A stretch of 64,000 nt of DNA from a virus: positions 1 through 64,000 of IMG/VR virus record IMGVR_UViG_3300025459_000003. One strand, written 5' to 3'. A program made the position numbers and the translations under genes. The notes below the pieces were generated by a model, which was given only the letters and a program-made list of their open reading frames with translations, made no database searches and was not told the DNA's origin. Below are positions 1,859 to 55,522 of this stretch, one piece after another (position 1 is the first letter of the stretch; each line of letters opens with the position of its first letter).

Positions 1859-4800
1859 ATGGCACTATTCGGATCGTATGCCCCGCCTGGAGTCTACACG
1901 AGCGTCGTCATCAGCGGAGGGGGGCAGCCCCTCTTCGGCAGCGCCCGCATCCCCGTCATCATCGGGGAAGGGCAGGAGTTCTTCGCCCAGGACAACGTCG
2001 AGCTACATCGCGGCTCCTCGCCCGTGGCGGACGACCAGGTCGTGAACGAGAACATCTCCGACCAGGTGAAGTCCATCACCAACCAGTTCAAGGCCACCTA
2101 CTTCCCCGTGGTCACGGGGGACGGGTCCGGCACGGTGACGGACGACTCGTCCAAGGTGCAGGTCGTGGTGGAGGGGATACCCGCCACCGTCATCTCCCTT
2201 GACGGGGAGACGGGGGCCTTCACCACGCAGGAGCTCGTCACGCCCGGCCAGAACGTCGAGATCACCTACTACTTCAAGAGGACCGACACGCTCGTCCCCA
2301 ACGAGGACCTGTCGGCACAGGTCCCGGCCTTCTCGTCCCTCAAGGTATGGGACTCGACCCATGCCGTCAGCACCATCCTCGGCACCACCCTGCCGGGGGC
2401 CGTGGGCAACGAGATCACCCTGGCCCTGACGGACGACTACCTGAACTCGCCCCCGGGGACCGGCGTGTCCGACGCCCTGGCCGTGAGCGGGGCGGGGACC
2501 GACTCCATCTCCATTGACATCCGCAAGACCGACGGCAGCGTCCGGGACATCGAGGACCTCTACAGCCTCGTCCAGGCCGGGATACCGACCCTGGATGCGG
2601 GCTACCTGACGGCGACCGTCCCGGCCCCCGTCACCACCTCCCCGCCCACCGCCTTCCCGCTCAGCACCATGACGGCGACGCACTTCTCGGGCGGCGCGGG
2701 CCCGAACAGCAACATGGTCTTCAAGGTCAAGCACGTCCCCATCGTGGACGGCAGCAACGGGGGCGTCGTCACCACCGACCCGACCAAGGTCGCCGTGCTC
2801 GTCAATGGGGCAAGTGCCAAGGTCCGGGCGGTCGACGGCGTCCACGGGCTGGTGACTTTGCTCAACCCGGTGACGTACGGCTCCACGCTTGCCGCCACCT
2901 ACTACACCAACACCTACCAGAACACCTACGACCTGCTGCCGGCCAGCAACGTGGCCAGCATCACGGAAGTCGGGCTGGGGCCGGACCGCAGCGACTTCAT
3001 CGAGGACACCGACTTCGTCCTCGGCACCGACGCCAACGGCAACGGGACGATCAACTGGGGGGCCAGCACCACCACGGAGGTCGGCACCTCCACGACCGGC
3101 TACACCCCGTTCGGCCCGGCGCAGATCACCACCGCGCTGGTGGACGAGAAGGTCTACCTCCGCCCGTGCCACGGCTCGGTCAACGGCAGCAACCTGGCCT
3201 TCGTCCTTCCGGACGTGCCGGTCGACGGCAGCGGGCTGTCCCGCCCGACCGACGACCCCAGCAGGATCGCCGTGTACGTCGGGGCCGACCCGGTGTCGGC
3301 CCTCACCGCAGGGGCGGTAAGGGTCGTCTCCCTCTCGGGGAGCACGGGGGCGTTCTCCCTGTACGTCCCGCCGACGGCGGGGCAGGGCGTGTACGCCACC
3401 TACTGGCGCAACACCCTGAACGACCACAGCTACACCGTGGCGGTCAAGAGCCCCGGCATCCCGGGGCAGGGCACCTATTCCATCAAGGACGAGATCGGGC
3501 GCGTCCTGCCCGTGGCGACCAACGGGACCAACATAGTCACCGACACCAACTTCAACACCACCGGCATCGTATGGCCGAGCGCCTTCTCCGACCTCTGGGC
3601 CGAGCCCGGGTCGATTGACGAGGTCGTGACGCTGGCCTTCCAGGACGACGGCCTGTCCAACATCAGCATCCCCGCCACGCAGGCGACGCTGACCGCCCAG
3701 GGGATCGTCTTCACGGCATCGTCCCCCGGGGCGGCCGGGAATTCCGTCCAGGTCGCCTTCGACACCACGGGAAGCGGGGCACCCCTCGTCAACGGGAGCA
3801 AGGTGACGATAAGGGGGTCCATCACCCAGGCCGCCGCGGCGGCGCAGTTCCCCGTGACCGTGTCGGGAATCAGCATACTCGCATCGCTCGCGCCCGGCAA
3901 CACGGGATCCGTCCTGGTGCAGACGGCCGCCCCCCTGAACCTGTCGGACGGGCAGGACGCCGTCACCGAGCCGTACGCCGACCGCTACCTGGTCACGTCC
4001 TCGGCGGCCCCCAAGGGCTCCGCGGGCACGGGGTACCTCGGGCAGACCTACATCGACGCCAGCACGGCGCTCAAGTTCACCATCGTCGACCCGCAGGAGG
4101 CGCTCGGCTACGGCTACACCACGCTTCCCTCCCCGCAGTACGCCTTCCGTCCGGGGGACACGCTGACCTTCGTCATCAGCAGCGAGGCCGTCCGCCACAC
4201 CGGGTCGGCATACTTCCCCTACGGCAACGCGGAGCCGAACAACCTCGTCGCCATCCCGGGCCTCACGACCAAGGTGGCCACGAACTTCGGGGCCAACGTC
4301 GGGGACACCGCCATAATCGACACCTTCAACAAGTCGGGGAACGAGCCGCTGGTGGGTGAGTTCTACTACGTGTCGTTCACGGTCGCCAAGGCCGCCTCCG
4401 ACATGACCATCAAGCTCTACGACACACCGGAGGACGCCTACGCCGTCTACGGGCAGCCCAGCACGGTCAACCGGGTGTCCCTGGGAATCCAGCTCCTCAC
4501 GCAGAACGGGGCCCAGCAGTTCGGGGTCATCCAGGTGCCGAAGCAGGCCGGGTTCAACACGGCCTCGGACGCGGACTTCATCTCCGCCATACAAAGCCTT
4601 GCCGTGGCGCTGCCGGGAAGCACGCAGAAGGCGGCCGTCGTCGTGCCCCTGAGCACGAGCACGTCGGTCCATCAGTTCCTCAGCAGGTTCCTCATCACGC
4701 AGGCGGGCGTCAGGAACAAGGGCGAGGCCATCGGCTTCGTGGGGTACAGCCTCTACACCGACGCCAGCACGGCGCGTGCCAACGCCCGGGCAGTCAAGAA

Positions 4801-5407
4801 CGCCCGCATGATCGCCATCGGGATGCCCGCCGCGGCGGTGGTGCTCACCGACTCCCAGACCGGGGTCGGCATCGAGTACTCCGTGTCGGGCGAGTTCATG
4901 GCGGCGGCGCTGGCGGGCCTCAACCTCAACCCGTCGAACGACGTGGCCACGACGCTGACCGAACAATCCCTCGTCGGGTTCTCCAGGCTGCTCGTCCAGT
5001 ACGACGACACGACCATGAACCTGATGGCGGCCGACGGCCTGGTCTGCCTGACCAACAACAACGGGGCGCTCTTCGTCCGGCACTACAAGAGCACGGACCC
5101 GAGCAACCCCATCACGTCCGAGCCGACCTGCACGACGGTCACGGACTACGTCTGCCAGTTGTTCAGGGCCGACCTCAAGCAGTTCATCGGGCGCAAGCTG
5201 GTGGACGGGCTGACCACGGACATCAGCGTCGTCTGCTACTCCCGGCTGAACTCGCTCATCAACAACCAGATCATCTCCGGGTACAAGGCCCTGAACGTGG
5301 TCGAGGACCCGGACGACCCGACCACGGTGGACGTCACGGTGACGTTCAAGCCCATGTTCTCGTTGCTCTACATCAGCGTGACCTTCACGGTCACGACGAG
5401 CCTGTAA
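1859..5407 (+). CDS. Contractile tail sheath protein
   Basis: 1182 aa; N-terminal YAPPGVY; C-terminal sheath domain (FIGRKL...DPTTVDVTVTFKPMFSLLYISVTF); AAGGAG RBS. Confidence 0.9.
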   Translation: MALFGSYAPPGVYTSVVISGGGQPLFGSARIPVIIGEGQEFFAQDNVELHRGSSPVADDQVVNENISDQVKSITNQFKATYFPVVTGDGSGTVTDDSSKVQVVVEGIPATVISLDGETGAFTTQELVTPGQNVEITYYFKRTDTLVPNEDLSAQVPAFSSLKVWDSTHAVSTILGTTLPGAVGNEITLALTDDYLNSPPGTGVSDALAVSGAGTDSISIDIRKTDGSVRDIEDLYSLVQAGIPTLDAGYLTATVPAPVTTSPPTAFPLSTMTATHFSGGAGPNSNMVFKVKHVPIVDGSNGGVVTTDPTKVAVLVNGASAKVRAVDGVHGLVTLLNPVTYGSTLAATYYTNTYQNTYDLLPASNVASITEVGLGPDRSDFIEDTDFVLGTDANGNGTINWGASTTTEVGTSTTGYTPFGPAQITTALVDEKVYLRPCHGSVNGSNLAFVLPDVPVDGSGLSRPTDDPSRIAVYVGADPVSALTAGAVRVVSLSGSTGAFSLYVPPTAGQGVYATYWRNTLNDHSYTVAVKSPGIPGQGTYSIKDEIGRVLPVATNGTNIVTDTNFNTTGIVWPSAFSDLWAEPGSIDEVVTLAFQDDGLSNISIPATQATLTAQGIVFTASSPGAAGNSVQVAFDTTGSGAPLVNGSKVTIRGSITQAAAAAQFPVTVSGISILASLAPGNTGSVLVQTAAPLNLSDGQDAVTEPYADRYLVTSSAAPKGSAGTGYLGQTYIDASTALKFTIVDPQEALGYGYTTLPSPQYAFRPGDTLTFVISSEAVRHTGSAYFPYGNAEPNNLVAIPGLTTKVATNFGANVGDTAIIDTFNKSGNEPLVGEFYYVSFTVAKAASDMTIKLYDTPEDAYAVYGQPSTVNRVSLGIQLLTQNGAQQFGVIQVPKQAGFNTASDADFISAIQSLAVALPGSTQKAAVVVPLSTSTSVHQFLSRFLITQAGVRNKGEAIGFVGYSLYTDASTARANARAVKNARMIAIGMPAAAVVLTDSQTGVGIEYSVSGEFMAAALAGLNLNPSNDVATTLTEQSLVGFSRLLVQYDDTTMNLMAADGLVCLTNNNGALFVRHYKSTDPSNPITSEPTCTTVTDYVCQLFRADLKQFIGRKLVDGLTTDISVVCYSRLNSLINNQIISGYKALNVVEDPDDPTTVDVTVTFKPMFSLLYISVTFTVTTSL

Positions 5408-7766: not shown

Positions 7767-7849
7767 CGTAGCGGCGATTGCAAGGAAAGGGACTTTCAGG
7801 GATTTGAGTAGGATGCCGCCCGTATAGGTCGGCTTTCAGGAGGAAGACA

Positions 7850-8542
7850 ATGGCGCAGGGTGGTTACATCTATCAGCAGGGGGCGAGCCCCCAGACGGAA
7901 GCCGTCATCAGCTCCCGCTTCAAGATTTTCACCGACGTCGTGGGCGTCGGGAAGTTCGTGAAGCTGGGCGTGACGTCCTCCTTCCAGATTTCCGAGACGC
8001 GCACGGTCGAGGCCATCCGCGGGCTAGGCTACGGCGATCAGATCGCCGAGCTGGTGCCCGGCGTCACCGAGCCGCTGAGCATCACCATCCAGCGCACGTG
8101 CCTCTACCTGGCCAACATCATGCAGGTGCTGGGCTACAAGGCGGGCGTGAGCGGCGGCGTACGCTCCATCCGCCACCACAGGTGGCCCTTCGACATCAAG
8201 ACCGAGATCGTGTTCAGCCAGCTCGCCTCCGAGGATCCCGCCAACGCGGCCGGGACGGGCGGGGGGACCCCCGACCTTACCAAGGCCGACATCCCGAACG
8301 AGGGCGGCCTCAACAACCTCGGCAACCCGGGCCTGTTCGCCGTGGCCACAGTGTACGAGGGTTGCTGGATCAGCAACTATACGACGGGGTACGCCATCGA
8401 GACCGCCGCCGTGAACGAGAACGTCACCGTGTCGGTGACGGACATCTTCGACGTGTCCGGCACGGTCTACGGCGAGTTCCTGGACAGCGGCATGAACGCT
8501 GGCGACGCCACCGGGCGCAGCCTGCTGTACTCGATTTCGTAG
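7850..8542 (+). CDS. Tail tube protein
   Basis: 230 aa, beta-rich; ETRTVEAIRGLG...ELVPG...YEGCWISNY pattern typical of myophage tubes; AGGAGG RBS; near the sheath. Confidence 0.8.
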   Translation: MAQGGYIYQQGASPQTEAVISSRFKIFTDVVGVGKFVKLGVTSSFQISETRTVEAIRGLGYGDQIAELVPGVTEPLSITIQRTCLYLANIMQVLGYKAGVSGGVRSIRHHRWPFDIKTEIVFSQLASEDPANAAGTGGGTPDLTKADIPNEGGLNNLGNPGLFAVATVYEGCWISNYTTGYAIETAAVNENVTVSVTDIFDVSGTVYGEFLDSGMNAGDATGRSLLYSIS

Positions 8543-8635
8543 AGACGGGCCTTTAGTCAAGGACGGGACGGGCACATGGCCCGCATCCTGTTGTGTCGTT
8601 CCATTCTTAGCCTATTCTGTTGTACCATTTTTAGC

Positions 8636-9004
8636 TTATTGTGTCGAGGTCATGAGCATCTTGTATCTCTTCGACGGATGCTTGGTGAGGAACCCCGTCC
8701 TCCTCCCCTTCTCGTAGGGAATGCGCTCGTCCTTCCACTGCCCCGCCGTGGGGTCGGCTATACTTCCGTCGTCCCTGGCCAGGAACCAGTGGGTCCATCC
8801 CGGGCCGCTCAGGACCACCAGGACGTATCCCCTTTGCCTTCCCCATATGTGGAACAGGGTTTCGGCGGCAAGATAGCAGTGCCCGAAGGTGAAGTGGTCG
8901 CCCGGCTTCCTTTTCTCCAGCCATTCCGGGCTCATCAGGTCGTCCGACAGGGCTTCCTGGACGGCCCGCATGGCGCTTTTCTTGGTCAGGTCCCGTGTGC
9001 TCAT
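8636..9004 (-). CDS. Small protein with a Cys-His-Asp (papain/transglutaminase-like) motif set
   Basis: GHCY...THWFL...DPTAGQ ordering. Confidence 0.5.
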   Translation of the reverse strand: MSTRDLTKKSAMRAVQEALSDDLMSPEWLEKRKPGDHFTFGHCYLAAETLFHIWGRQRGYVLVVLSGPGWTHWFLARDDGSIADPTAGQWKDERIPYEKGRRTGFLTKHPSKRYKMLMTSTQ

Positions 9005-9077
9005 GGGCTCATCGGATGCAATACCGGTTTTTCGTCAGAAATCCGTGTCTATCCGATGCTTTATGTGAAAGGCGAAT

Positions 9078-12000
9078 ATGGCTTCCAGCTCTCTCTTGCT
9101 CAAGAAGTCCGCTTTGCTCCCAGTTCCCGGAATCGGGGAAGGGGTGGGGGGCATCGACCTCGTCACCAAGGAAAACCTCATAGACGACCCGGGGTACGCC
9201 GCTCACCAGCACCATGCCGACCCGGAGTACGACATGCCGTTCGGCCAGAAGGGGACGGAGGTGGAGGGCACCAAGCACGGATCCGCCAAGCACGCCGACT
9301 CCTCCGTCTGCGTCTGCGGGCACATGTGGCACGAGCACTGGGACAAGGGGGACTTCGGCTGCAAGAGCGAAGGACGCGGCTGCGAATGCAAGGGATTCAA
9401 GGCGAAGGCGGCCTCCCGGCCCTCGGAGCCGTCCTACAGGGCGGCCGAGGTCCTTGCCCATTTCGGCAGGATACGGAAGGGGAGCATCCGCAGGACGGCG
9501 CTGGCCCTCGACCGCATGGCTGCCGAGGACGCCAGGGATTTCGCCCATGAGCCCGTCGAGGAGTTTACCAAGAGGGTGACGCCCGTCAGCCCGCTCCTCA
9601 AGGAGCCGGACCCCGAGACCGCCACGTTCTTCAAGGAGAGCGAGGAGGGCACCGAACGGGGCGGGGACGCCCCGCCCAGCGCCGACCCGGACCTGGTTGC
9701 CTACATAAAAAGCAAGGGCATGGACCCTCGCTGGATTCCGGTCGAGCGCCTGCCCGGCAAGCGGATGAAGGACTACCCCATAACCAGGGCGATCCTGGAA
9801 TGGGAGAAGTCGACGGGGAAGCATTTCGGGGACCCCTCCCTGACCGATGCCGAACGGGAAAGGCTGACGAAATGGGGCGGGGGGAAGAAAGAAAAGGTAG
9901 ATACCATTTCTTTCCAGGAAACGGAGGATTGGGGTATCGTTCCCCTGGACGAGGACATCGGCGTCGCCTTCGACAGGGAGGAGCTCAGGGAGGCGATAAG
10001 AGGAGTCCTGGGCACGCTGACCCCTCGCGAGCAGAAAGTCATCGAAAGGCGGTTCAACCTGGACGGAAGGGGCGGGGCCACCCCTGAGGAAATAGGGAAT
10101 GAGTTTGCGGTTAACAGGGAGCGGATACGCCAGATCGAGGCAAAGGCCCTGCGCAAGCTGCGCCATCCCTCCAGGAGCAGGCGCTTGCGCCCGTTCGTCT
10201 CGGCCCTCCTCAAAAAGGCGGAATGGGATAGTAGACAGGCCGCCGAGGCCATAGGAAAGGTGTTCGTCGGCGAGTGGAACGACATCCCGGACGACGTCAT
10301 TGAGGAGGCTGCCAAGATGGCATCCGGCATCTTGGGGACGGCCTACATATTCTTTTCGCCCGAGGGGGCAAGGAACATTCGGTCGCAAAATGCTGGGTGG
10401 TCCGTAGGCAGCAAGTCGGTTCCCCTACAAGAAGGATCTAAACTGGTGGCAATGGTGGGCACCCCAAAGCCCAAGCAGGCCACCACGAAGTCCTACGGCG
10501 CTGGCACTCCCATCGGCGGGACGGCGAACGGCGTGGGGCAGCCCGCGCCCGGCGACCAGCCCACCCACCCCGCTTCGTTCCAGCAGCCCGCCCAGCAGCC
10601 AGCCCAACAGAGTGCCCAGCACCCAGCCGGGCCCGTGCAGCAGGAACAGCAGCAAACGCAGCAGCAAGGGCGGCAGGGGCGGCCCTACCAACGAGGCCAG
10701 TCCCTGTCGGTCGATCCCAATGCCCCGCCTGGCGTTCCGCAGAACGTCGCCGACCAGGACAGCATGGTCAGCGAGATAGTCAGGCAGCTCCAGGAGAAGA
10801 TGTCGGCCCTAGAGTCGAAGGTGGAAATCCACGAGTCACCCGACCTGCTGCCGCCCCGCACCGAGCTCAGGAAGCACCTCGACCCGTCGCTCGTGGACGA
10901 GGAGGACAGGATTCCCATCCCGGTGAGCAAGGGGGCGGGCAGCGCCGAGGAGGACGACGAGGACGACGAGGACGACAGGGGGCCGATACCCGACCTCGGC
11001 ACCCTGTACGGGAGGCCGATAGAAAAGACGGATTTCCCGGCTCCTTCCGGACCGCAGGTGCATTGCCCCGTTTGCTGGCAGAACCAGACGGATTGGACGG
11101 ACGATGAGATTCGGCGGCATGCCCAGAGTTGTGGGAAGGCCTCGGGGCCGTCCGGGGGTGGGGAGCTTAATGACCTCGTGGAGAGGGGCACCCACGACCG
11201 GTGCCAGGAGCCGGGATGCGGGGCGATAATAAGCAAGCTGTATATGAAAGACCACATGCGGACCTTCCATCCCCATGCCGACCCGGCGTCGTACCTGGAC
11301 CTCACCGACGAGGACAGGAGGTTCCTCCAGGAGATGAGGATACGGGGGGCCAAGAAGGCCTCCGACTGGGATCCCATCGGGGCGAAGAAGCAGTACGACG
11401 AGGCATGCAGGCTGTGGGACGAGGGCAGGCAGAACGATGCGACGGAGGCGCTGCGCTCCTCCGTCCGCTCCAACCCCTACCACGGGCCCGCCCACTTCAG
11501 GCTCGGGGTGGCCCTCGCCCATGAGGGGAACGAGGAGGAGGCGCTCGCCGAGCTGGGGCTGGCGCTCAAGGCAAGGCCCAGGAACACGTGGGCCTACCAT
11601 ACCATCGTGGCGGAGATGGACAAGAAGGGCGACCTGGACGGGCTGCCGCAGTCCGTGAGGAAGTTCATCGGGGACAATATGGTCTCCAAGCAGGCGGGAG
11701 GGGGGCCGACCAAGCGCTGCGGGCCCATCATCATCGATCAGAATGGGTGGCTTACCCCGGAAGGCGACTTCGTTCCCGTAGCAGTGGACAAAAGCCACCT
11801 TGAAGAAGGCTTCGAATCGGCGGTCCGGGTCATTTGCACTCCGCCTTTCGTCGCCTTCGACATCCAAGTAGACTCCCCGAGAGTTCGGGAAGTGGTCAAG
11901 GAGGCCTTGCGCAACAACCCAGGGCTGCAAACCGTGGAAATCGAGATTCAGGGGGTCGAGTTCGAGGACAAGCTCAATCCGGAACAAGCCGAGGAACTCC

Positions 12001-12185
12001 TGGACAGCTACCGCTGGAGGCCCGAGTACCGAAAGAAAAGCAAGGTCGCCGTCCAGACCGAGGAAGGGGTCAACGAGGTGTGCCCGAACTGCCATGGCCA
12101 GAAGACCAAGCCCGTCGACGACCCGGAGGTGGAGGGCGGAAACCTAGTGGAATGCCTGACTTGCGGGGCATTCTTCGCCAAGTAG
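9078..12185 (+). CDS. Polyvalent protein: Zn fingers, RpoD-like sigma-70 region 4, TPR
   Basis: [13 protein letters not shown]...[33 protein letters not shown] (about 9975-10200) closely matches the RpoD region 4 consensus; TPR-like [22 protein letters not shown]; several CxxC/C2H2 motifs. Confidence 0.75.
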
Positions 12186-12222
12186 GGATCACGGCGGCTA
12201 CGCAAGCTTATATTAGGGAACC

Positions 12223-13125
12223 ATGTCGTTCAAGAAGATAGCCCAGGCCGTGCTTTTCGAGCCTACGATGACTTCCTGCGACTGGGGGAGGATGTGGGGG
12301 GATCGCGCCTTCCGCGGGTGCGCCGTCGACAGGGCGCATCCCTTCTGCAAGACCGCGGCCGACCACACCAAGTACCTGCTCAGCCATTGCACCATTATGA
12401 GCTCGGTGGCCTGCGAGTCCGAGCCCAACGACTACCTGATCCGCCCCGCGTCGGCGCATCTCGTTAACAACAACGACGATGCATGGGAGAATTCCGTCCT
12501 CAAGCTGTCCCACAAGAGCTTCGTGGGGGCATTCAACTTCGTCGAGCACTTCCAGAACAGCAAGTATGCGAAGGGGCACGTCATCGACAGCATCCTCCGC
12601 AAGATACACCTCACCCAGGACCCCCGGGACGACGTTTTCTTCGTCGACATCCTCGTGGCGACGGACCTCTCGCACCACAAGCTTGCCGACGACATAAGGA
12701 GCAGGAAGGTCAAGTACCTGTCGATGGGGTGCGTCACCGACCTCGTCATATGCTCCTTCTGCGGGCAGCACGTCACGGACGCGAGCAGCTACTGCCACCA
12801 CCTCCAGTTCAACAAGGGCACGTTCCTGCCCGACGACGACGGGGTGCCGCGCCGCGTGGCGGAGCTCTGCGGGCACAAGACCCTCCCCGGAGGGGGGGTG
12901 AAGTTCGTGGAGGCTAGCTGGGTGCAGACCCCGGCGTTCCCGGGGGCGATGCAGAGGTCCATAGTGGCGGACGAGTGGCTGGGCCCCGCCACCCGCTTCA
13001 CGAGCAGGGTCGAGGCCTCGGGAAAAGAGGCGTTCTCCAAGGCGGCCTCGGAAAGTGGCGACTATTCAAGTCCTTATTTGGGGGAGCTGTTGCTCTCAAG
13101 TGACGACGGAAGGAACCTAAGGTAA
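12223..13125 (+). CDS. Prohead (capsid maturation) protease with Zn-ribbon insert
   Basis: N-x-N-x-D, FVEH, SMGC, CSFCG...CHHL, FVEASWVQTPAFPGA motifs; upstream of scaffold and capsid genes. Confidence 0.75.
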   Translation: MSFKKIAQAVLFEPTMTSCDWGRMWGDRAFRGCAVDRAHPFCKTAADHTKYLLSHCTIMSSVACESEPNDYLIRPASAHLVNNNDDAWENSVLKLSHKSFVGAFNFVEHFQNSKYAKGHVIDSILRKIHLTQDPRDDVFFVDILVATDLSHHKLADDIRSRKVKYLSMGCVTDLVICSFCGQHVTDASSYCHHLQFNKGTFLPDDDGVPRRVAELCGHKTLPGGGVKFVEASWVQTPAFPGAMQRSIVADEWLGPATRFTSRVEASGKEAFSKAASESGDYSSPYLGELLLSSDDGRNLR

Positions 13126-20290: not shown

Positions 20291-20581
20291 ATGATAACCG
20301 TGCAGACCAACGGGCCGTACCCCAACCGCATACAGCTCCTCCTGGGGGACTGGGTGGGCCCGCTCGTCCGCCCCACGAGCCCGCCTGAGGCGTTCGACCC
20401 GTCCGTGGACCTGGAGGTGTACGTGGACGGGCTCCCCGTCCCCGTCTCCGCCTGGTTCTTCGACAGGATAAACAACCGGTACCTCCTGTTCACGGACAGG
20501 CCGATAAACCTCCGGGGGGTAATCCAGGTCATCCACCACATGCCGGACCCGCCGTTCCAGTATGGCGTGGCGATAGGGTAG
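20291..20581 (+). CDS. Hypothetical virion protein
   Basis: 96 aa ORF, tightly packed in the operon. Confidence 0.6.
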   Translation: MITVQTNGPYPNRIQLLLGDWVGPLVRPTSPPEAFDPSVDLEVYVDGLPVPVSAWFFDRINNRYLLFTDRPINLRGVIQVIHHMPDPPFQYGVAIG

Positions 20582-36162: not shown

Positions 36163-38178
36163 ATGCCAAGGGGAGAGCGATTCAGCAAGCGGGAGTCGGT
36201 GTTCGGGAAGGCGGTCGAGGGCATCATCGAGAGCGCCCCCAAGATCCTCAACGCCATAGACTTCATCGAGTCCCGGCAGGGGCTCAACGTCAAGCTCTTC
36301 CCCGTGCAGCGCCTCCTGACCAAGTGCGTCTTCGGCATCCCCATGGACTACAAGATGGGGATGGTGCCGTTCTACGACGTGTTCCGCGAGAAGCTCATCA
36401 GGACGGTCACGGAGGTCGAGGCCCTCCACATATTCTTCGAGGAGGGCCGCTGCAGCGTGGGCGACTGGAGGGACATCCCCGAGCGGGGGTACAACGAGGC
36501 GTGCATCATCGCCGGCCGGCGGGGAGGAAAATCTCAGTGGGTGTCGGCGACCGCGTCCTACAAGCTCTACTGCCTGCTCAACCACAAGAGCCCCCAGGAC
36601 TACTTCGGGCTGGTCCCCGGCTCCCCCATCGACTTCACCTTCCTGGCCCAGGACGACACGGGGGCGACAAGGCTGTACGACAAGCTGCGCGAGGACGTGA
36701 ACCGCACGCCGTTCTTCAGCCCCTACCTGAAGGCCAGCAGCGGGACCTGGCTGGGCTTCGTCACGGAGTCCGACAGGGGCAAGAGGGACGTGACCCCCAC
36801 GATCAACTGCGAGTCCCTGCCCTGCACCACCAACAGCGTCCGCAGCCCGTCGTCCGTCTTCCTGGCGCTCGACGAGTTCGCCCACTTCCGGTCGGAGAAG
36901 GGCTCGTCCTCGGACGAGGTGTACGCCGCCGCCACGCCCAGCACCCTGAACTTCCACCACGCCGAGCTGCCCAACGGCGAGTGGATAAGCGGCGACCAGA
37001 TGAGGGCGCTGCAGCCGGAGGAATACAGGGAATACCAGGACTCCATGGTCGTCTCCATCTCGACGCCCTGGACGAAGGTCGGCAAGATGTACGACCTCCA
37101 CAAGCTGGCCATGACCAAGGGGAACGCCAGCGGCATCTTCACCCTCAGGGTCAGCACGGCGGAGATGAACCCCTTCGTCCTCCCCAAGGTCCTGCACGGG
37201 GAGTACGAGAAGAACCCCATGACGTTCAAGGCGGAGTACGGGGGGCAGTTCCTCGACTCCTCCGAGAGCTACGTCACGGAGGCGCAGATACGGGCGTGCA
37301 CGGACGTGCAGTACACCGAGGGGGAGATGCCGGTGCCGAGGCCCGAGACCGCCAGGCTCAACCTGACGAGGTTCGTCCCGTCGTGCGTCGGGCGCAACTA
37401 CTTCTGGGGGGTCGACCTCGGCATGATGAAGAACGCCACGGGCGTCGCCATCGGGCACCTGGAGCACCGGGGCGGCAAGAACCCGATAGAGCTGGTCTAC
37501 GACTACATCGACCGCATGATGGTGGGGGAGAGGTTCGACGGGCCGGGCGTCGAGGAGATTCCGGGGGTCGTGAAGTACGTGGGGTACCGGGCGCTCCCCC
37601 TGGAGGACGTCGTGATGTGGCTGCGGGCGCTCAACAGGGTGATGCCGTGCTTCCGCGGGGCGACCGACCAGCACGGCGGCCAGGCGCTCGTCCAGCTCCT
37701 GGAGATCAACCAGATATACAACATCGAGCTGCTCAACCTCACCACCGTCATCAATTCCCAGATGGCGTTCGCCCTCAAGGGCTACATGGACAACCGGAGG
37801 TGCAGGTTCCCGTACGTCCCCAAGTTCATGGACGAGATCCGCCTTGTGGAGGCGGAGTTCGTCGGGAAGTACCAGATCAGGGTGCAGGCCCCGGCCGAGA
37901 AGGGGGCCACGGACGACATGACGGACGCCGTGCAGGAGGTGGCGTACGTCGCCCAGAAGTGGCTCGTGGAGGAGGGGGGGCTCGCCCAGGACCCCGCCGG
38001 GGCCAGCCTCGCCCTCCAGGAGCAGATGTCCAAGCCCGCCGCCCCCCTCCTCTCGCTCGACAGCCTCGCCATGACGGAGATCAAGACGCTGGAGAGGCTG
38101 CACAGGCTGCAGCGGGGGCTGATGATGACCCCCGGCACGGTGGTGGTGAGGGACCCGTTCCGCCGCCGCAGGCGGTGA
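36163..38178 (+). CDS. terL: Terminase large subunit
   Basis: Walker A GRRGGKS, Walker B FLALDEFAH, motif III ISTP, RNase H-like GVDLG and DDMTD. Confidence 0.9.
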   Translation: MPRGERFSKRESVFGKAVEGIIESAPKILNAIDFIESRQGLNVKLFPVQRLLTKCVFGIPMDYKMGMVPFYDVFREKLIRTVTEVEALHIFFEEGRCSVGDWRDIPERGYNEACIIAGRRGGKSQWVSATASYKLYCLLNHKSPQDYFGLVPGSPIDFTFLAQDDTGATRLYDKLREDVNRTPFFSPYLKASSGTWLGFVTESDRGKRDVTPTINCESLPCTTNSVRSPSSVFLALDEFAHFRSEKGSSSDEVYAAATPSTLNFHHAELPNGEWISGDQMRALQPEEYREYQDSMVVSISTPWTKVGKMYDLHKLAMTKGNASGIFTLRVSTAEMNPFVLPKVLHGEYEKNPMTFKAEYGGQFLDSSESYVTEAQIRACTDVQYTEGEMPVPRPETARLNLTRFVPSCVGRNYFWGVDLGMMKNATGVAIGHLEHRGGKNPIELVYDYIDRMMVGERFDGPGVEEIPGVVKYVGYRALPLEDVVMWLRALNRVMPCFRGATDQHGGQALVQLLEINQIYNIELLNLTTVINSQMAFALKGYMDNRRCRFPYVPKFMDEIRLVEAEFVGKYQIRVQAPAEKGATDDMTDAVQEVAYVAQKWLVEEGGLAQDPAGASLALQEQMSKPAAPLLSLDSLAMTEIKTLERLHRLQRGLMMTPGTVVVRDPFRRRRR

Positions 38179-38988: not shown

Positions 38989-39432
38989 ATGCAGACTTCA
39001 AACAACGTGATCTTCGACTCGAAGGCGGAATTCTCCGGGAAGTGGCGGGACATCAACAATTTCGCGGCATTGTCCGTCCACATCGTCGGGCTGGAGGCCG
39101 CCTCCGACACCTGGATCGAGGTCTCGAACAACCCCAACGTCCTGCTCAACCAGCCCAGCGACTACGTGTCGGGATACAGCACCCCCATCCTGGTCCCCAA
39201 CGCACCCTCGGGCATCTCGGGGGTGCCGATCACGGGAAACCTGGCCGTCCATGCAAGCTACTCCCCGCCGGTGTCGGGAGACGTCGAGGAAGAGGCGGAC
39301 GTGGCGTTCAGCGCCGATGGGACGCAGGCCGTGTGGAGCCCTTCCTGCCTCGTCTGGAACTACATACGGGTGGTCAAGACGGGAGGGGGGAGCACCGAGA
39401 CCGTTGCCTATTTGTTCGGACAGATTACTTAG
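38989..39432 (+). CDS. Hypothetical virion protein
   Basis: 147 aa beta-rich; late-type promoter at 38959-38980. Confidence 0.6.
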   Translation: MQTSNNVIFDSKAEFSGKWRDINNFAALSVHIVGLEAASDTWIEVSNNPNVLLNQPSDYVSGYSTPILVPNAPSGISGVPITGNLAVHASYSPPVSGDVEEEADVAFSADGTQAVWSPSCLVWNYIRVVKTGGGSTETVAYLFGQIT

Positions 39433-39479
39433 GCGGCGCAACGACCCGGTCAATCCCAAGTCGAAAGGCAAAAGAACCC

Positions 39480-39995
39480 ATGACCAACGGAAACAACGGA
39501 AGGACGCACGAGCCCGGCCTGCGGGAGGTCACGTCCCAGCTCGACGACCTCCAGGAGCTGATGATGGCGAAGATCGAGGCCGTCGAGAAGGAAATCACGG
39601 GCAACGACAGGCGCTACGAGGAAAGGTTCGAGGCGATGGACGCCAAGACGGGGCTCGCCCTGGCCTCGTCGAAGGATGCCGTCGTCAAGGCGGAGGTCGC
39701 CACGGAGAAGCGCTTCGACTCGGTGAACGAATTCAGGGAAACCCTCCGGGACCAAGCGACGACCCTCCTTCCCCGCGAGGAGGCCGCCGCCCGGTTCAAG
39801 TCGATGGAGGAGAAGGTGGACCAGATCAAGAAGGACGTCGAGGGCTTGCGGGAGTCCCGTTCCGCCGCCAGCGCCTCCGACCTCACCAAGGAGAAGGGGT
39901 CATCGACGAACCTGACGGTGCTGATGATGGTGATCGTAGGCCTTTTCGGCGTCGCCTCGCTGGTGGTAAGCATCATCGCGTTGTTCAGGCGTTGA
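39480..39995 (+). CDS. Coiled-coil protein with C-terminal TM helix
   Basis: ATEKRFDSVNEFRETLRD...; TM TVLMMVIVGLFGVASLVVSIIALF. Confidence 0.6.
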   Translation: MTNGNNGRTHEPGLREVTSQLDDLQELMMAKIEAVEKEITGNDRRYEERFEAMDAKTGLALASSKDAVVKAEVATEKRFDSVNEFRETLRDQATTLLPREEAAARFKSMEEKVDQIKKDVEGLRESRSAASASDLTKEKGSSTNLTVLMMVIVGLFGVASLVVSIIALFRR

Positions 39996-40067
39996 GGGTA
40001 AGCGTCAAGGCGCATTTGTCTGGGTAAGTTGCCCGGAAAGACAACCCTCCCCGCAGCAAGGGGTAGA

Positions 40068-42041
40068 ATGGGAACCATCCGCATAATCGACCCCTCGTCC
40101 GGCTCCATCGTCACGCTCGACGGCATCGTCGTCACGTGGGTGAAGACGTACAATCCCACCGTCGCCTACAGCCTCGGCCATGCGGTGAGCTACGCCAACG
40201 GCTCCTGGATTTCCCTGAAAAATGGTAACGTGGGGAATGTTCCCGCGTCCGGCTCGTCCTGGTGGGGACTAATCGCCGAGGGAGCCCAGGGCCCGACCGG
40301 GCCGACTGGCTACACAGGACCTACGGGTTACACCGGCTATACCGGCCCGACCGGTCCAACAGGATATACCGGCCCTACCGGCTATACCGGCCCCATCGGT
40401 CCCACGGGGCCGACGGGTTACACGGGATATACCGGCTATACTGGTCCTGATGGACTCCCAGGCTCCGCCGGACCCACCGGGCCCACAGGCTTCACTGGGC
40501 CAACGGGCTTCGTCGGGTCGCAGGGCGACAAGGGCGGGCTTCGCTACTACTTCGACGCAGGCACCGGCCCTGCGGGCCTGAACAATGCAGGGGAATTGCG
40601 CCTGAACAACTCCTCCCCGGCCTTCGCGACGCACCTCTACATGTACCAGTGGGACGTCGTCCCGAACGACCAGATTTTCTACCTGTTGCAGTGGAACAAC
40701 GGGTATGTGGAGATCGAAGAAAATTCGAACCTGGTCCCCGGCTTCCTGAACTTCCTGGCCACGGGCGTAGTCTACCTCGGGGCTGGCGTCATCGACATAT
40801 CCGTGTCCTACCTGTCGGGCACCCTGCCGTCCCAAAACGACCAGCTTGTCGTGAACTTCAGCCCCCTCGGGCCCGTCGGCCCCACCGGGCCGGGAAACTT
40901 TACTGGCCCTACCGGATACACGGGCCCTTCCGACGGTCCCATAGGCCCCACGGGCTTCACCGGCCCGACGGGGCCGGGGGGCGGGGGATCCAGCAACTTC
41001 ATCGCCGTCTCCCAGCCCACCCACGGGTTCGCCACCGGGCAGGCCGTCTATTTCGACGGCGTCATCTGGCGGCTCGCCAAGGCCAACGATGCCGACACCT
41101 TGGCAATCGCCGTCGTCAGCTACGTCAGTGCGGACGCCTTCGACGCCTACCTGGAGGGGGAGATCGACGGCCTGTCCGACCTCGTGCCGGGGGAATACTA
41201 TTTCGTCAGCGACTCCTCGGCGGGGGCATTGACGATCACCGCCCCGACCGACCCGGCGAGCTTTGTCAACCCCATCCTGTTCGCCCTCTCGGCGACCACG
41301 GGGATAGTCCTTCCCTACCGCCCGACCGACAACGCCGTGGCACCGGCAGGGCCGACCGGCCCCACCGGCTATACCGGCCCGACCGGGCCGACAGGCGACA
41401 CGGGCCCGACAGGCTACACGGGCTACACGGGCCTCGGCGACACCGGCCCGACCGGGCCGGGCAGCTTCACCGGCCCGACTGGCTATACGGGCCCTTCCGA
41501 CGGTCCCATCGGGCCGACCGGCCCCACGGGGCCGGGGGGCGGGGGAGGAAGCCCCCTGACGTTCTTCGGGGACTACTCCCATACCTTCGGCTCCAACTCC
41601 TTCGGCGTGCAGCAGGACGTCATCAAGGTCAGCTACCCCATGTCCCTGCCCGCCCTGTCGGTCTCCAGGCTGGAGATCAACATAATCTCGGCGGACAGCA
41701 ACGCCTCCCACTACTACGACTTCGGCATCTACGACCTGGCCGGGAACCTGGTAGCGGACACGGGGCCCATCAACGTCCCGTCCACGGGGGCGATGGACAT
41801 CCCCCTCGTCCAGGGGACGGTGGCAATCGCTGCGGGACCGTACCTGTTCGCCATAACGGGCAATGCGGGGACGGTCTTCCTGGCGAGGACCAACATGAGC
41901 GGGGCGTATTCCCTGCTGTATTGGCAGACCGCGACGGCGTCCTCCGGGGGGCAGTTGCCCGCCACGATTTCCCTCTCGGCGTCGGCGTCGACCCTGGATG
42001 CATACGGGGACAGCTATTCGCCCATCTTCCTGCTCCATTAG
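40068..42041 (+). CDS. Collagen-like (Gly-X-Thr) tail fibre / appendage protein
   Basis: N-terminal CBM5/12-like aromatic module; three GPT/GYT collagen tracts separating three globular domains. Confidence 0.8.
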
Positions 42042-42050
42042 TGAGGCAAC

Positions 42051-42857
42051 ATGGCGCTTTCTGCGGCAAGCAAAATCCAGGGCCCCCTCGGCCCGACCGG
42101 CCCGACCGGCTATACCGGCTATACTGGCTATACGGGCCCCTCAGATGGCCCCATAGGCCCGACCGGCCCCACGGGGCCGGGGGGCGGGGGCTCGTCCTGG
42201 CCCTACGTCAACCTCGTCCCAGTCCCCCCCGACCTGGCCGGATGGGGGTGGGTAAACCTGCCCGGCGCGTCGGAAAACCTGACCAACGGCGTCCTGACGC
42301 TCTCCACGACCTCCACGGGGGGCTACCAGATGCACTGGTTCGGGCAAGCGCTTCCGGCCCCGCCCTGGACGGTGATCTGCGCCTACGCCCCTCCGGGCCC
42401 GTTCTATTCCATGTCCACGGACGTCTACTCCGCCCAGAGCGGGAACTGGTACGACGGGCTGTGCCTGTGGAACAGCGACACGTCGTTCCTCTACCTGAGC
42501 CACTGGCTCGGCGGCCAGATGGGGATGACCATCGAGTCGTACAACGAAACCCCGGGCCTGTCCCCCCCGTACAGCGACCCCGGCTTCGTGGTCGGCGGGC
42601 ATGACGTGACGAGCGGCTTCCCGCCGTTGATCTGGTACAAGGCCCACTTCGACGACGTCACCTACGACATCTACACGTCCCTTGAGCCCGCGAGCACGGG
42701 ATGGCTGAGGATTTGGTCGGCGACGCACCACACCTTCCTCGGGGACGGCACCCCCAAGTACAACCATGCGGGATGGGCCATCAACACGGGCAACATGGAG
42801 GCGGGCCACGACTTCACGGGCGGGGCGGTCCTGTCGTGGAGCGTCACGGATTCCTAG
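42051..42857 (+). CDS. Second collagen-like fibre protein
   Basis: GPTGYT tract and the same [17 protein letters not shown] linker, then a beta-rich domain. Confidence 0.75.
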   Translation: MALSAASKIQGPLGPTGPTGYTGYTGYTGPSDGPIGPTGPTGPGGGGSSWPYVNLVPVPPDLAGWGWVNLPGASENLTNGVLTLSTTSTGGYQMHWFGQALPAPPWTVICAYAPPGPFYSMSTDVYSAQSGNWYDGLCLWNSDTSFLYLSHWLGGQMGMTIESYNETPGLSPPYSDPGFVVGGHDVTSGFPPLIWYKAHFDDVTYDIYTSLEPASTGWLRIWSATHHTFLGDGTPKYNHAGWAINTGNMEAGHDFTGGAVLSWSVTDS

Positions 42858-42900
42858 CAGGCTTCGGCAGCTTCCCGGACTACCAATACCTTGGACAGAA

Positions 42901-43040
42901 GAAGGTCCCGGCCGACTTGACACAAGGAAGCTCTTGCTTCCTTTTTAGCCGCGGGACCAGGGGAGACCCGCGATAGGGTTCCCCGCACGCGGCAACAATG
43001 CGGCGGCGGCCAGGCCGGGACTTGGTCGCCGCCGACCTTC
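42901..43040 (+). ncRNA. Candidate structured non-coding RNA (unknown family)
   Basis: Closing stem, three hairpins and loop complementarity; starts right after a late-type promoter motif (42878-42899). Could instead be terminator hairpins between convergent genes. Confidence 0.4.
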
Positions 43041-43050
43041 CTTGCCTTCC

Positions 43051-43761
43051 TTAGACGTCTCTCTTTGCTTGCCGATAAAGCACGCCGCCGAGCCCGAGCA
43101 GGCCCGACCCAAGGAGCAGCAGGCTGCCCGGTTCAGGCGTGGCTCCCTGATTGCCGAGGACCACGAATGCATCGGAACAGGTGCCGCCACCGGGGAAGAA
43201 GGATGGGCAGACATCGGGCGTGACGTAGCCGATCGCGCTCGACCACGCCGCCGAGGGGCCGTTGTTCATGTCCCAGAGCGCGGGGTCGCCGGGAACGCTA
43301 GTGGTTGCGTCGTAGAGCGTCAGCCAGTATGTTCCGGCATCCAGGTCGACCGGGCCCGTGCTGAAATCGTTGACATAGATGTCGAAACCGATATAGTTGG
43401 TGAACTCAAAGTAGTCGGTCGTGGCGGAAAAACCGCTGGCTTTGTTGGCGTTGCCGGGGCTGGTGCCGATGCCCCACCCAATCGAGGTCATGGAGTCGCC
43501 GAGGTACGCCCAAGAAGCAATCTCGATATCCAGCACGGTTCCCGGGAAGGCCAAGGAAAACGAGTTCGAAACCGCATAGTCACGGTTGATGACCCCAACG
43601 TTGTGGGTGCCGTAGTAAAAAGAGTTGCCGCAGTACAGGCACACCTCGGGAGGCGAGGCGTGACCGGGCAGCGGTTTCGCACCAATCGAAGAGGCACTGA
43701 CTACGCTCGCCAAGGCCAAACACAGCACGATGAGCAGCGCGAAAATCCTTGCATTTCTTAT
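43051..43761 (-). CDS. PEP-CTERM (exosortase-sorted) surface protein
   Basis: Signal peptide; C-terminal TPEPGSLLLLGSGLLGLGGVLYRQAKR; RBS GAGGAG precedes ATA at 43761 (first standard start is GTG at 43728). Confidence 0.8.
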   Translation of the reverse strand: MRNARIFALLIVLCLALASVVSASSIGAKPLPGHASPPEVCLYCGNSFYYGTHNVGVINRDYAVSNSFSLAFPGTVLDIEIASWAYLGDSMTSIGWGIGTSPGNANKASGFSATTDYFEFTNYIGFDIYVNDFSTGPVDLDAGTYWLTLYDATTSVPGDPALWDMNNGPSAAWSSAIGYVTPDVCPSFFPGGGTCSDAFVVLGNQGATPEPGSLLLLGSGLLGLGGVLYRQAKRDV

Positions 43762-43821: not shown

Positions 43822-44469
43822 CTACTTTCCTTGCATGTTTCTTTTTGTCAGCCCATAGAGCACTGCTCCTATGCCGAACAGGCCCGACCCCAGGAGCATC
43901 AAGGTAGAAGGCTCGGGCACCGGGGCAGGGGGATCGGCAAGGAACTCCTGGCTGGAGCCCAGGTCGACGGGCGTCAGGACGACGAAACCGGGAAACTCGC
44001 CTGACCAATATGGCATTTGCGGCTCTTTCGCCGCTATCAGCCACGCCGCTGCATTAGCATCCAATCCTCCCTGCAATTTGGGGTCGGTATCGGCCCAGAT
44101 CGCATAGGTTATGTCGTTGGACTGGGACGGATTTAGGTTGAGCTGTTCGACCAGCCATGCCAGCTCGCTGTAGAGGTCGAACGTCGCATGGGGGGAGCCC
44201 CACTGAAATTCCGCGTCAACGAGGCCGTCCACGGTGATTGGCGAGACGTAGGCGTCCCATCCAGGGGAAACCTCGTCCAGGAAGTCGTCGCAATAGATGT
44301 CGATCTGCGGGCCTCCGTTGATGGTGCCGTAGTAGGGATCGGTGTAGTACCCTCCCTGGTTGGCCCCGTTTGGGCCGATGAAGCCCACCCGGACCGTGTC
44401 TGCGGCGGCGGACAGGGAGAATAGGATCGTCACGACGAACAGCAGTAGGGCATAGGAATGTCTTTTCAT
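43822..44469 (-). CDS. PEP-CTERM surface protein
   Basis: Signal MKRHSYALLLFVVTILFSLSAAA; C-terminal VPEPSTLMLLGSGLFGIGAVLYGLTKR; AAGGAG RBS. Confidence 0.85.
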   Translation of the reverse strand: MKRHSYALLLFVVTILFSLSAAADTVRVGFIGPNGANQGGYYTDPYYGTINGGPQIDIYCDDFLDEVSPGWDAYVSPITVDGLVDAEFQWGSPHATFDLYSELAWLVEQLNLNPSQSNDITYAIWADTDPKLQGGLDANAAAWLIAAKEPQMPYWSGEFPGFVVLTPVDLGSSQEFLADPPAPVPEPSTLMLLGSGLFGIGAVLYGLTKRNMQGK

Positions 44470-44573
44470 GTCACTCTCCTTTGGGATTTCGGCGACAACA
44501 GTCCCATAATACACGTTTTTTGGATTTTTTGATGGAAAAAGGGATTTTCCCGGAGGGGAGTCGCCCCCGAGCG

Positions 44574-54871: not shown

Positions 54872-55522
54872 TCATAGCGTCCCCTTCGTGATCCCCTCTA
54901 TCGTCTCCCACGGCACCTCGGCGAACGATGCGTTGGGCACCCTCTTCGGGGCGGCGTTCCCGGGATGGATGGCCGAGACGAGCAGCCCGAGGTCGTGCAT
55001 GTCCAGGCACCGGTGCTCCGGCACCTTGGATAGGAATACCGCATCGGCCCCCTGCCGCATCTCCTCGAACTTGTTGGCCTCCCATAGGGAGCGCCGGAAG
55101 GCGGGGGCCGCCACCCACCTCCTCGGGGTCAGGTTCCTGTAGAGGAACGCCCTCCGCGTCCCGTGGAGGTAGTAGTACAGGCTCCCCGTGCCCGCCAGGT
55201 CCAGGGCTGGATTCTCAAGGACGGAGGCCTGCTTCCCCACCCTGTCGGGGGCGTACCAGTCGTCGTCGTCCCATACTATGGCCGCGTCCCCCGCGGCGTG
55301 CCCCATGGCCAGGTTCATCAGCCTTCCGTGGAGCAGCCGGGGGCCCGGCACCCTCACGTACTTTATCCTCGGGTCCTCGGGGAGCATGTCCTTTATGGGG
55401 TCGGCCCCGTTGTCCACCACTATCCATTCCATGCGGGGCCAGCCCTGGGACTGGAAGCACCGGATGCACCGGGGCCAGAACTCCCTCCGGTCGGCGGTCG
55501 GCGTCAGGCAGGAGACAAGCAT
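54872..55522 (-). CDS. GT2-family glycosyltransferase
   Basis: VSCLTPT, EWIVVDNG, WDDDDWY.PDR. Confidence 0.8.
   Translation of the reverse strand: MLVSCLTPTADRREFWPRCIRCFQSQGWPRMEWIVVDNGADPIKDMLPEDPRIKYVRVPGPRLLHGRLMNLAMGHAAGDAAIVWDDDDWYAPDRVGKQASVLENPALDLAGTGSLYYYLHGTRRAFLYRNLTPRRWVAAPAFRRSLWEANKFEEMRQGADAVFLSKVPEHRCLDMHDLGLLVSAIHPGNAAPKRVPNASFAEVPWETIEGITKGTL

Follow-up and report, generated by a model that had tools for sequence, protein, structure and literature searches.

Genomic setting of the element

The window analysed here comprises the first 64 kb (64,000 nucleotides) of a 157,656-bp IMG/VR record that is estimated to be about half complete. The record is that of a jumbo phage (GC ~63%), myovirus-like and with a classical large terminase (TerL); the window contains a tail-sheath gene (1859-5407), a sigma region-4 domain (9078-12185) and a large-terminase-like gene (36163-38178). 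The element described below sits in a 193-nt gap (42858-43050) between convergent genes and fills it entirely. Upstream, a + strand fibre gene (42051-42857; 268 aa, collagen-like N-terminus, GC3 0.90) ends in a TAG stop at 42855-57, and downstream a convergent - strand gene (43051-43728) encodes a 225-aa PEP-CTERM protein (Pfam PF07589, E 3.3e-5) with its stop at 43051-53. An earlier, sequence-only reading of this DNA had observed that no + strand gene follows the element, and this was confirmed, the next gene being the - strand PEP-CTERM gene. A second, tandem PEP-CTERM protein is encoded at ~43822-44514 (-; PF07589, E 6e-5), and the lengths of these proteins differ by haplotype (197, 222, 225 or 231 aa for the first, 215 or 230 aa for the second).

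For the haplotype represented by loci L083 and L084, an unrelated 577-aa fibre gene replaces the fibre gene of the window, and the element is retained. This exchange involves a cassette: near-identical haplotypes carry either the 670-aa and 268-aa collagen-like genes (39042-42857 in the window) or the single 577-aa gene (4864-6597 in L083/L084, on the - strand of those loci), and homology between the haplotypes returns gradually within the 5′ part of the element, which thereby marks a recombination boundary. Across lineages, the ancestral left-hand neighbour is a conserved 128-153-aa protein without a Pfam family (38989-39432, +, in the window; 12811-13248 in L092; 12910-13296 in L088). The window and L092 versions are 49% identical, and fibre genes intervene between this gene and the element in the window phage. 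The right-hand neighbour is the end of a leftward glycosyltransferase operon, except in L115 and in the window, where both PEP-CTERM genes are placed between the element and that operon. In some relatives (L095, at 8294-12940; L096, L118-L120 and L137), the TerL match covering residues 97-666 is spread over ~2.9 kb, and a 1548-aa stop-free ORF at this place suggests an in-frame insertion of ~1.2 kb, possibly intein-like.

Predicted fold in the window

On the + strand, positions 42878-43045 have a minimum free energy (MFE) of -80.3 kcal/mol (z -4.54), and none of 200 shuffled sequences folded as well; the - strand of the same interval folds less well (z -3.73). The + strand MFE shape consists of a closing stem (42901-07/43034-40), hairpin H1 (42924-43), a nested hairpin H2 (42948-93) and hairpin H3 (43002-33), and it reproduces the hairpin architecture that had been proposed from the letters alone. 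Upon rereading the sequence, we also found each motif of that proposal in place, namely GAAGGT at 42901-06, ACCTTC at 43035-40, the complement to the H3 loop and the box at the 5′ end.

H1 (42924-42943, +) has 8 bp and a UCUU loop. The outer stem of H2 (42948-42993, +) pairs 42948-53 with 42988-93, and its inner stems pair 42960-65 with 42979-84 and 42967-69 with 42976-78 (+), with an asymmetric internal loop and a 6-nt apical loop that contains an invariant GA. H3 (43001-43034, +) has a conserved 10-bp stem (43001-10/43025-34), and its inner 4 bp (43011-14/43021-24) compete with the pseudoknot described below. L094 and L095, the only relatives that were folded singly, gave the same three hairpins.

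Relatives and distribution of the element

A blastn search against deposited phages gave no match. About ten metagenome contigs with an identical fibre protein carry a gap that is identical except for one SNP at 43003, and they hold no covariation information; the SNP, the sole polymorphism of the element among near-identical contigs, is a G>C change in L072 that breaks the third pair of H3 (G-C, 43003-43032). Searches with the flanking proteins were of little use, as the fibre search was swamped by unrelated loci through the collagen repeat and the PEP-CTERM search gave no relatives. The C-terminal domain of the fibre protein recovered only its own 90% cluster, along with domains elsewhere that are 26-37% identical and one 76-aa fragment at 87%, and was useless for synteny. 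The first informative variant was reached via the downstream gene (L083, L084 and L087), where a homologous gap lies next to the unrelated 577-aa fibre gene. Between L083 and the window there are eleven substitutions within the structure. In H1, 42925 A>G is compensated by 42942 U>C. Three others leave a wobble pair that only the + strand tolerates: 42928 A>G, also in H1, and the A>G changes at 42902 and 42903 in the closing stem. One breaks a closing-stem pair (42904 G>U) and one lies in an unpaired stretch (42921 U>C); two fall in the H2 loop, and two destroy the U-run after H1.

A terminase search of IMG/VR and JGI metagenomes yielded 76 related jumbo-phage loci (TerL 33-79% identical), in which the element was sought with nhmmer, then with a covariance model from the two haplotypes and later with a rebuilt six-sequence model. 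Homologues were found on the + strand only, syntenic and 1.3-2.3 kb after TerL, in four further sub-lineages whose TerL is about 74-77% identical to that of the window. With the two-sequence model the E-values were 1.6e-9 for L093/L094, 5.9e-9 for L095/L096, 6.4e-6 for L092/L104 and 6.4e-4 for L088-L091, and the six-sequence model gave 1e-10 to 1e-20 overall, with 1e-13 to 1e-20 for these four groups, and added L115/L150 and L122. By covariance model, the element is absent from relatives with a TerL identity of 69% or less. Model R3, richer by three lineages, had no match in 56 loci of more distant relatives and, with filters off, none in L137 or L117. Two short contigs of closer relatives were negative as well, and in one relative at 79% identity the 2.9 kb downstream did not yield the element. 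A pattern scan of IMG/VR recovered only contigs that were already known. The element is single-copy in the 157-kb record, occurs exactly once in a 99%-complete relative of 317 kb, and has no copy in either of two complete genomes (332 and 463 kb) whose TerL shares about 55% identity. Overall, the family is small (about five lineages), known from metagenomes only, and so far confined to one clade of uncultivated jumbo phages.

Covariation supports the fold

Since a MAFFT alignment of four lineages put H3 out of register, we used a model-based alignment (A4) of nine sequences, eight of them distinct and representing about five lineages. In A4, which is model-fitted and made of related sequences so that its counts lean towards structure, 96.6% of 292 pair cells hold standard pairs compared with 79.8% in shuffles, 18 of the 33 pairs have changes on both sides, and the covariation score is 0.528 compared with 0.213 in shuffles; no shuffle out of 500 attained any of the three. 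When the 3′ partners were displaced by 1-3 columns, pairing fell to 45-54%. RNAalifold, which makes its own structure prediction, returned the same four helices with compensatory changes at 20 of 32 pairs. The independent double changes, as read from the alignment, are numerous for so few sequences.

These changes are spread over the whole fold. In H1, 94% of cells are paired and three of the eight pairs show double-sided changes; the outer stem of H2 is 100% paired with four of six pairs compensatory, and four of nine pairs in its inner stems are compensatory as well. H3 gives the clearest signal, with double-sided changes at seven of ten stem pairs: depending on the lineage, the 5′ arm is GCGGCGGCGG, GGGACGGCGG, GGGACGGUGA or GGGGAGGAGG, the 3′ arm matches in each, and the loop motif CCGGGA enclosed by these four different stem sequences is invariant in seven of eight variants. 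An extra hairpin, itself covarying, is present between the pseudoknot strand and H1 in L092, L094 and L095.

The sequence-only reading had staked its proposal on conservation and covariation in relatives, and A4 bears this out. Compensatory changes exceed both the shuffled and the slid controls, as is typical of a conserved structured RNA with a pseudoknot, and the comparison shows that purifying selection maintains both the predicted fold and the pseudoknot across five sub-lineages of these jumbo phages. The same evidence bears on whether the gap holds anything specific. Chance GC-rich hairpins or terminators could be expected in a convergent gap of a 63% GC genome, and a site acting at the DNA level, such as a recombination boundary of the fibre cassette, would agree with the homology break between the two fibre haplotypes, which falls in the 5′ part of the element. 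However, compensatory changes occur in all four helices and the pseudoknot across widely differing primary sequences, and neither a pseudoknot nor G-U pairs would be selected for in a site that acts as double-stranded DNA; this explanation is strongly disfavoured already and we regard it as extremely improbable.

A long-range pseudoknot that probably closes the junction

The segments GTCCCGGCC (42905-13) and GGCCGGGAC (43013-21) are exact reverse complements. In the RNA, the first forms the 5′ strand of a pseudoknot (GUCCCGGCC, 42905-42913, +), extendable to 11 bp over 42903-13, and the second, in the apical loop of H3 (43013-43021, +), forms the 3′ strand and covaries with it. A 9-nt inverted match alone is only mildly unusual in a GC-rich stretch of 160 nt, and for this reason the reality of the pseudoknot rests on covariation in relatives. 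When the loop was shuffled, the best helix was reached in 2 of 1000 cases for the window and 18 of 1000 for L083.

We then looked, lineage by lineage, for helices that the H3 loop could form with the 75 nt upstream. The best helix (7-11 bp) was found in the same place in each lineage, directly 3′ of the conserved ...YAGA-RG box. The pairing is GUCCCGGCC:GGCCGGGAC in the window and L083, UCCCGGUC:GACCGGGA in L095 and L092 (extendable to 9-10 bp), UUCCGGUC:GACCGGGA with one G-U in L094, UCCCCGGU:ACCGGGGA in L088 with one extra base on both strands, and CCCCGGU:ACCGGGG in L115. In L122 the pairing is CUGGUCC:GGACCAG, the loop and the 5′ strand both having been rewritten together. Among the changes, U-A became C-G and C-G became U-A, a 1-nt insertion is matched by one on the opposite strand, and G-U wobbles occur. 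With the pseudoknot set in one register, 94% of the cells over eight positions pair, a level that only 4 of 2000 column shuffles equal, and both sides have changed at three positions. The complementarity between loop and 5′ strand that had first been noticed in the window is therefore under selection, compensatory changes keeping the pairing in every lineage, and we conclude from this pattern of substitutions that the 9-nt loop complement is a real pseudoknot.

The closing stem fared differently. Its 5′ half (42901-42907, +; partner 43034-40) appears in the MFE of the window only, is lineage-specific and is probably fortuitous: no counterpart beyond chance was found in any lineage, 167-816 of 1000 shuffles equalling the best helices between the 5′ and 3′ ends. 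The sequence-only reading had taken the stem at 42901-06/43035-40 as part of the structure, had argued from it that the loop pairing would be hard to form within one molecule, and had proposed a switch or a multimer like the phi29 pRNA. The stem is not conserved in any other lineage, the steric argument loses its premise with it, and the multimer idea, which also finds no phi29 pRNA match, is not supported. An intramolecular pseudoknot in place of the closing stem is the simpler reading because that stem is not conserved, and at least 85 nt (linker, H1 and H2) lie between the two pseudoknot strands. Neither a switch nor a pRNA-like multimer mechanism is needed or supported.

Covariation proves the pairing, yet intra- and intermolecular forms of it are indistinguishable from sequence, and for a pRNA-like oligomer the 5′ strand would pair with the H3 loop of the next molecule to build head-to-tail dimers or rings for packaging or assembly. 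The element is indeed syntenic with the terminase gene, and with an H3 of 13-14 bp in the window only 2-3 loop bases would flank the 9-bp pairing, a geometry that appears tight. Against such an oligomer, the long linkers together with H1 and H2 let the 5′ strand reach the loop, the closing stem behind the steric argument is unconserved, there is no similarity to phi29 pRNA, and the phage has a conventional large terminase; we know of no system with a conventional large terminase that needs an RNA. We consider an oligomer of this kind very unlikely.

The likeness to phi29 pRNA (RF00044) is confined to general features: both are phage-encoded structured RNAs of similar size (about 120-170 nt) with a multi-helix junction and with Watson-Crick complementarity between two distant segments that covaries among related phages. 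By comparison, pRNA pairs two 4-nt loops in trans and has a conserved 5′/3′ helix, whereas the element pairs a 5′ single strand with one loop over 7-11 bp and is without such a helix. The pRNA host is a phi29-like podovirus, whereas the element belongs to a jumbo myovirus-like phage with a classical TerL.

A conserved box at the 5′ end

Directly before the pseudoknot strand, all eight lineage variants carry a box with the consensus CTAYC-N5-6-TTNNAYAGA-RG, which is conserved in sequence without covariation. In the window, the box GACTACC-N6-TTGGACAGA (42878-42899, +), described earlier as GACTAC-N8-TGGACAGA over the same positions, is followed by AG and aligns with ATATCAG-N6-TTGAATAGA-GG and CTACCC-N5-TTTCTTAGA-GG of other lineages; further lineages have CTATCC-N5-TTTCATAGA-AG and CTATCAG-N5-TTTTAATAGA-AG. 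The exact motif occurs once in the window and is unique in the record. With three mismatches allowed, its frequency in the window is at chance level (4 found, 3.5 expected), and looser patterns written as regular expressions were not above chance. No repeat of the box was found in the 99%-complete relative of 317 kb, where it is unique, or in the 22-kb loci of the relatives. The proposal of a late promoter is thus not supported: the box is conserved beside the element, but it lacks genome-wide repeats and its looser forms are at chance. For its role, a dedicated promoter, a site of processing and a single-stranded 5′ stretch of the RNA all come into question.

Two look-alikes in the window, not above chance, are GACTTTC-N6-TTGAGTAGGA at 7792-7815 (+), before the gene at 7850, and AACTATC-N8-TTTGAGATAGAA at 55583-55557 (-), before the gene at 55522; they hint at a shared start signal. 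Separately, the relatives contain a recurrent extended -10-like string, (G)TGTATACT(A/G), located 20-35 nt before small leftward genes (several in L092, L094 and L088, for example at about 7260 in L092 and about 8560 in L094). This string is reminiscent of early promoters of the host sigma-70 type.

Functional strand and transcriptional context

The consensus structure is more stable on the + strand in nine of nine sequences (summed energies of -474.3 compared with -444.1 kcal/mol), and it contains about 13 G-U cells compared with 2-5 A-C cells, one H3 position being G-U in three lineages. We therefore take the + strand as very probably the functional one, a call that rests on modest G-U and energy differences, with one "conserved G-U" that can be redrawn as an A-U pair. 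Function on the - strand would make the element a 3′ UTR or intercistronic element of the leftward glycosyltransferase operon, either a terminator or an EAR-like processive antitermination RNA. The position of the element is compatible with this, as the stop codon of a - strand gene (glycan-related or PEP-CTERM) adjoins it in the window, L083, L092, L094, L088 and L122, as it directly follows the - strand stop in every lineage but L115 and possibly L095, and as it lies between two - strand glycan genes in L088; its own - strand fold is also good (z -3.7). However, the consensus structure is less stable there in every sequence, the roughly 13 G-U cells would become C-A mismatches (including the position that is G-U in three lineages), neither strand matches EAR or another Rfam family, and most lineages have nothing downstream on the - strand to antiterminate into. 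Function on the - strand is therefore unlikely.

On the + strand, a gene ends 2-60 nt before the element in the window, L083, L092, L094, L095 and L122. This placement between convergent units would suit a structure that acts in cis at the 3′ end of the rightward late (terminase-to-fibre) operon, with no separate RNA gene; such a reading we hold to be possible but doubtful. The hairpins and the pseudoknot would then guard the mRNA from 3′ exonucleases, stop RNA polymerases converging from the glycan operon, or both, a role to which we attach the same limited likelihood. Occupation of the whole gap fits as well, and in the window H1 followed by U5 resembles an intrinsic terminator. On the other hand, a - strand polysaccharide pyruvyl-transferase gene of 820-840 nt lies upstream of the element in L088 and L115 and parts it from the + strand operon, and the box, pseudoknot and stems are intact. 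Because this gene intervenes, the element in these lineages cannot be the 3′ UTR of the rightward operon, and because they keep box, pseudoknot and stems, an RNA with its own start is favoured over a 3′ UTR. A pseudoknot with an invariant loop motif and an unpaired 5′ box also exceed what a stabilising hairpin would need.

The U-run itself (UUUUU, 42944-42948, +) is specific to the window phage. At the corresponding place the sister haplotype L083 has UUCC, and other relatives have CUCUA, UGG or UUACC; hairpin and U-run are thus not kept together in relatives. A terminator consensus scan did not list H1 with U5, and neither a consistent U-run nor a clear terminator was found after H3. The caution that H1 with U5 resembles a terminator is hence apt for the window haplotype and fails in all relatives, and H1 is not a conserved terminator because the U-tract is confined to the window phage, where some transcripts may nevertheless end at U5. 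Intrinsic terminators in convergent gaps share with H1 of the window a GC-containing hairpin and a U-run following a gene's stop codon. They differ in that H1 is kept by compensatory change and the U-run is not, and in that two further hairpins and a pseudoknot are conserved alongside it.

As for downstream genes, the one that follows is convergent in the window, L083, L092, L094 and L122, and L115 alone has a possible 54-aa + strand ORF after the element. A riboswitch leader was rejected, as no co-oriented gene follows the element. A coding role or small ORF was also rejected: on reading the sequences, we saw no frame that is conserved, and indel lengths are not divisible by three.

Comparison with known RNA families

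Rfam 15 (4227 models, including self-cleaving ribozymes, EAR, tmRNA, 6S and Y-RNA-like families) gave no match at the gathering score across the whole window and none at E up to 10 over 42700-43200. In the relatives' loci, including lower-GC ones, there was no match on either strand at E up to 5. The best chance-level scores were at most 19.4 bits, compared with gathering scores of 40-88. The phi29 pRNA model (RF00044) in particular had no match under the same thresholds in the window, over 42700-43200 or in the relatives. ARAGORN found no tRNA or tmRNA at the element; its sole call in the window is an 80-nt tRNA-Gly(GCC) at 20334-20413 (+), which overlaps a high-GC3 96-aa ORF (20291-20581), and one of the two calls may be spurious.

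Several other candidate classes were set aside. An accessory RNA of a diversity-generating retroelement (DGR) or a retron was rejected, there being no RVT_1 match in the 157-kb record (about half a genome), and no DGR template repeat was found, the fibre gene being matched elsewhere in the record by collagen repeats only. A tracrRNA or guide-type RNA was dropped, since the Cas12m-like locus of the phage lies more than 20 kb away, and an HDV-like ribozyme fold was dropped, since the strand order does not fit.

Among known architectures, pseudoknot-closed junction RNAs of the riboswitch or ribozyme type are similar in that a long-range pseudoknot between a loop and a strand closes a multi-helix domain with covarying stems and invariant loop and junction bases. 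The element differs from the riboswitch and ribozyme models in having no Rfam match at E up to 5-10 in the window or relatives. Unlike riboswitches, it has no downstream + strand gene to regulate in most lineages, and unlike ribozymes, it contains no known catalytic core motif that we recognised. It also resembles the orphan RNA motifs of CMfinder-type surveys of phages and metagenomes (PMC2864571, PMC8040213), which were likewise discovered by covariation only and are phage-borne, narrowly distributed and without an assigned function; unlike those, the element lies outside the 4227 Rfam 15 families and is confined so far to one jumbo-phage clade. Our literature search found nothing comparable to the element.

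Proposed RNA and its significance

Taken together, we think it probable that the gap at 42858-43050 encodes, on the + strand, a structured RNA of an undescribed family, most plausibly an independent late small RNA. The RNA would comprise a conserved unpaired 5′ box (42878-42904), a single-stranded segment (42905-13), and then H1, H2 and H3, and pairing of that segment with the apical loop of H3 (43013-21) would tie the three-helix junction into a compact domain through the pseudoknot and not through a closing stem. It would be roughly 140-165 nt long and start at or just after the 5′ box, which would serve as a dedicated promoter or processing site, and in the window phage U5 after H1 may additionally terminate part of the transcripts. 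As a guess at function, the RNA may act through its folded shape, as a protein-binding RNA or scaffold in the late, virion-building phase, and not by antisense pairing. That it is a virion-assembly or packaging cofactor multimerising head-to-tail or, as novel an alternative, the founder of a new ligand-binding or catalytic class of phage RNA is very unlikely; if true, a head-to-tail multimer would take pRNA-like oligomeric RNAs beyond the phi29 group for the first time, and it would work beside a classical large terminase. If the element were instead a 3′ end structure, it would be an unusually elaborate one.

Relative to the terminase module, the element has stayed in place and in the same orientation as its neighbours on either side were exchanged, and this fixed place beside the terminase and structural module, amid exchange of fibre, PEP-CTERM and glycan genes, implies a function that the phages cannot lose. 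To our knowledge, very few structured non-coding RNAs have been described from jumbo phages, and none has this architecture. The element is a clean candidate for experiments, being about 140 nt long with a defined fold that lends itself to clear compensatory mutants, and, if it is an independent late RNA, it would add an RNA component to the biology of huge phages.
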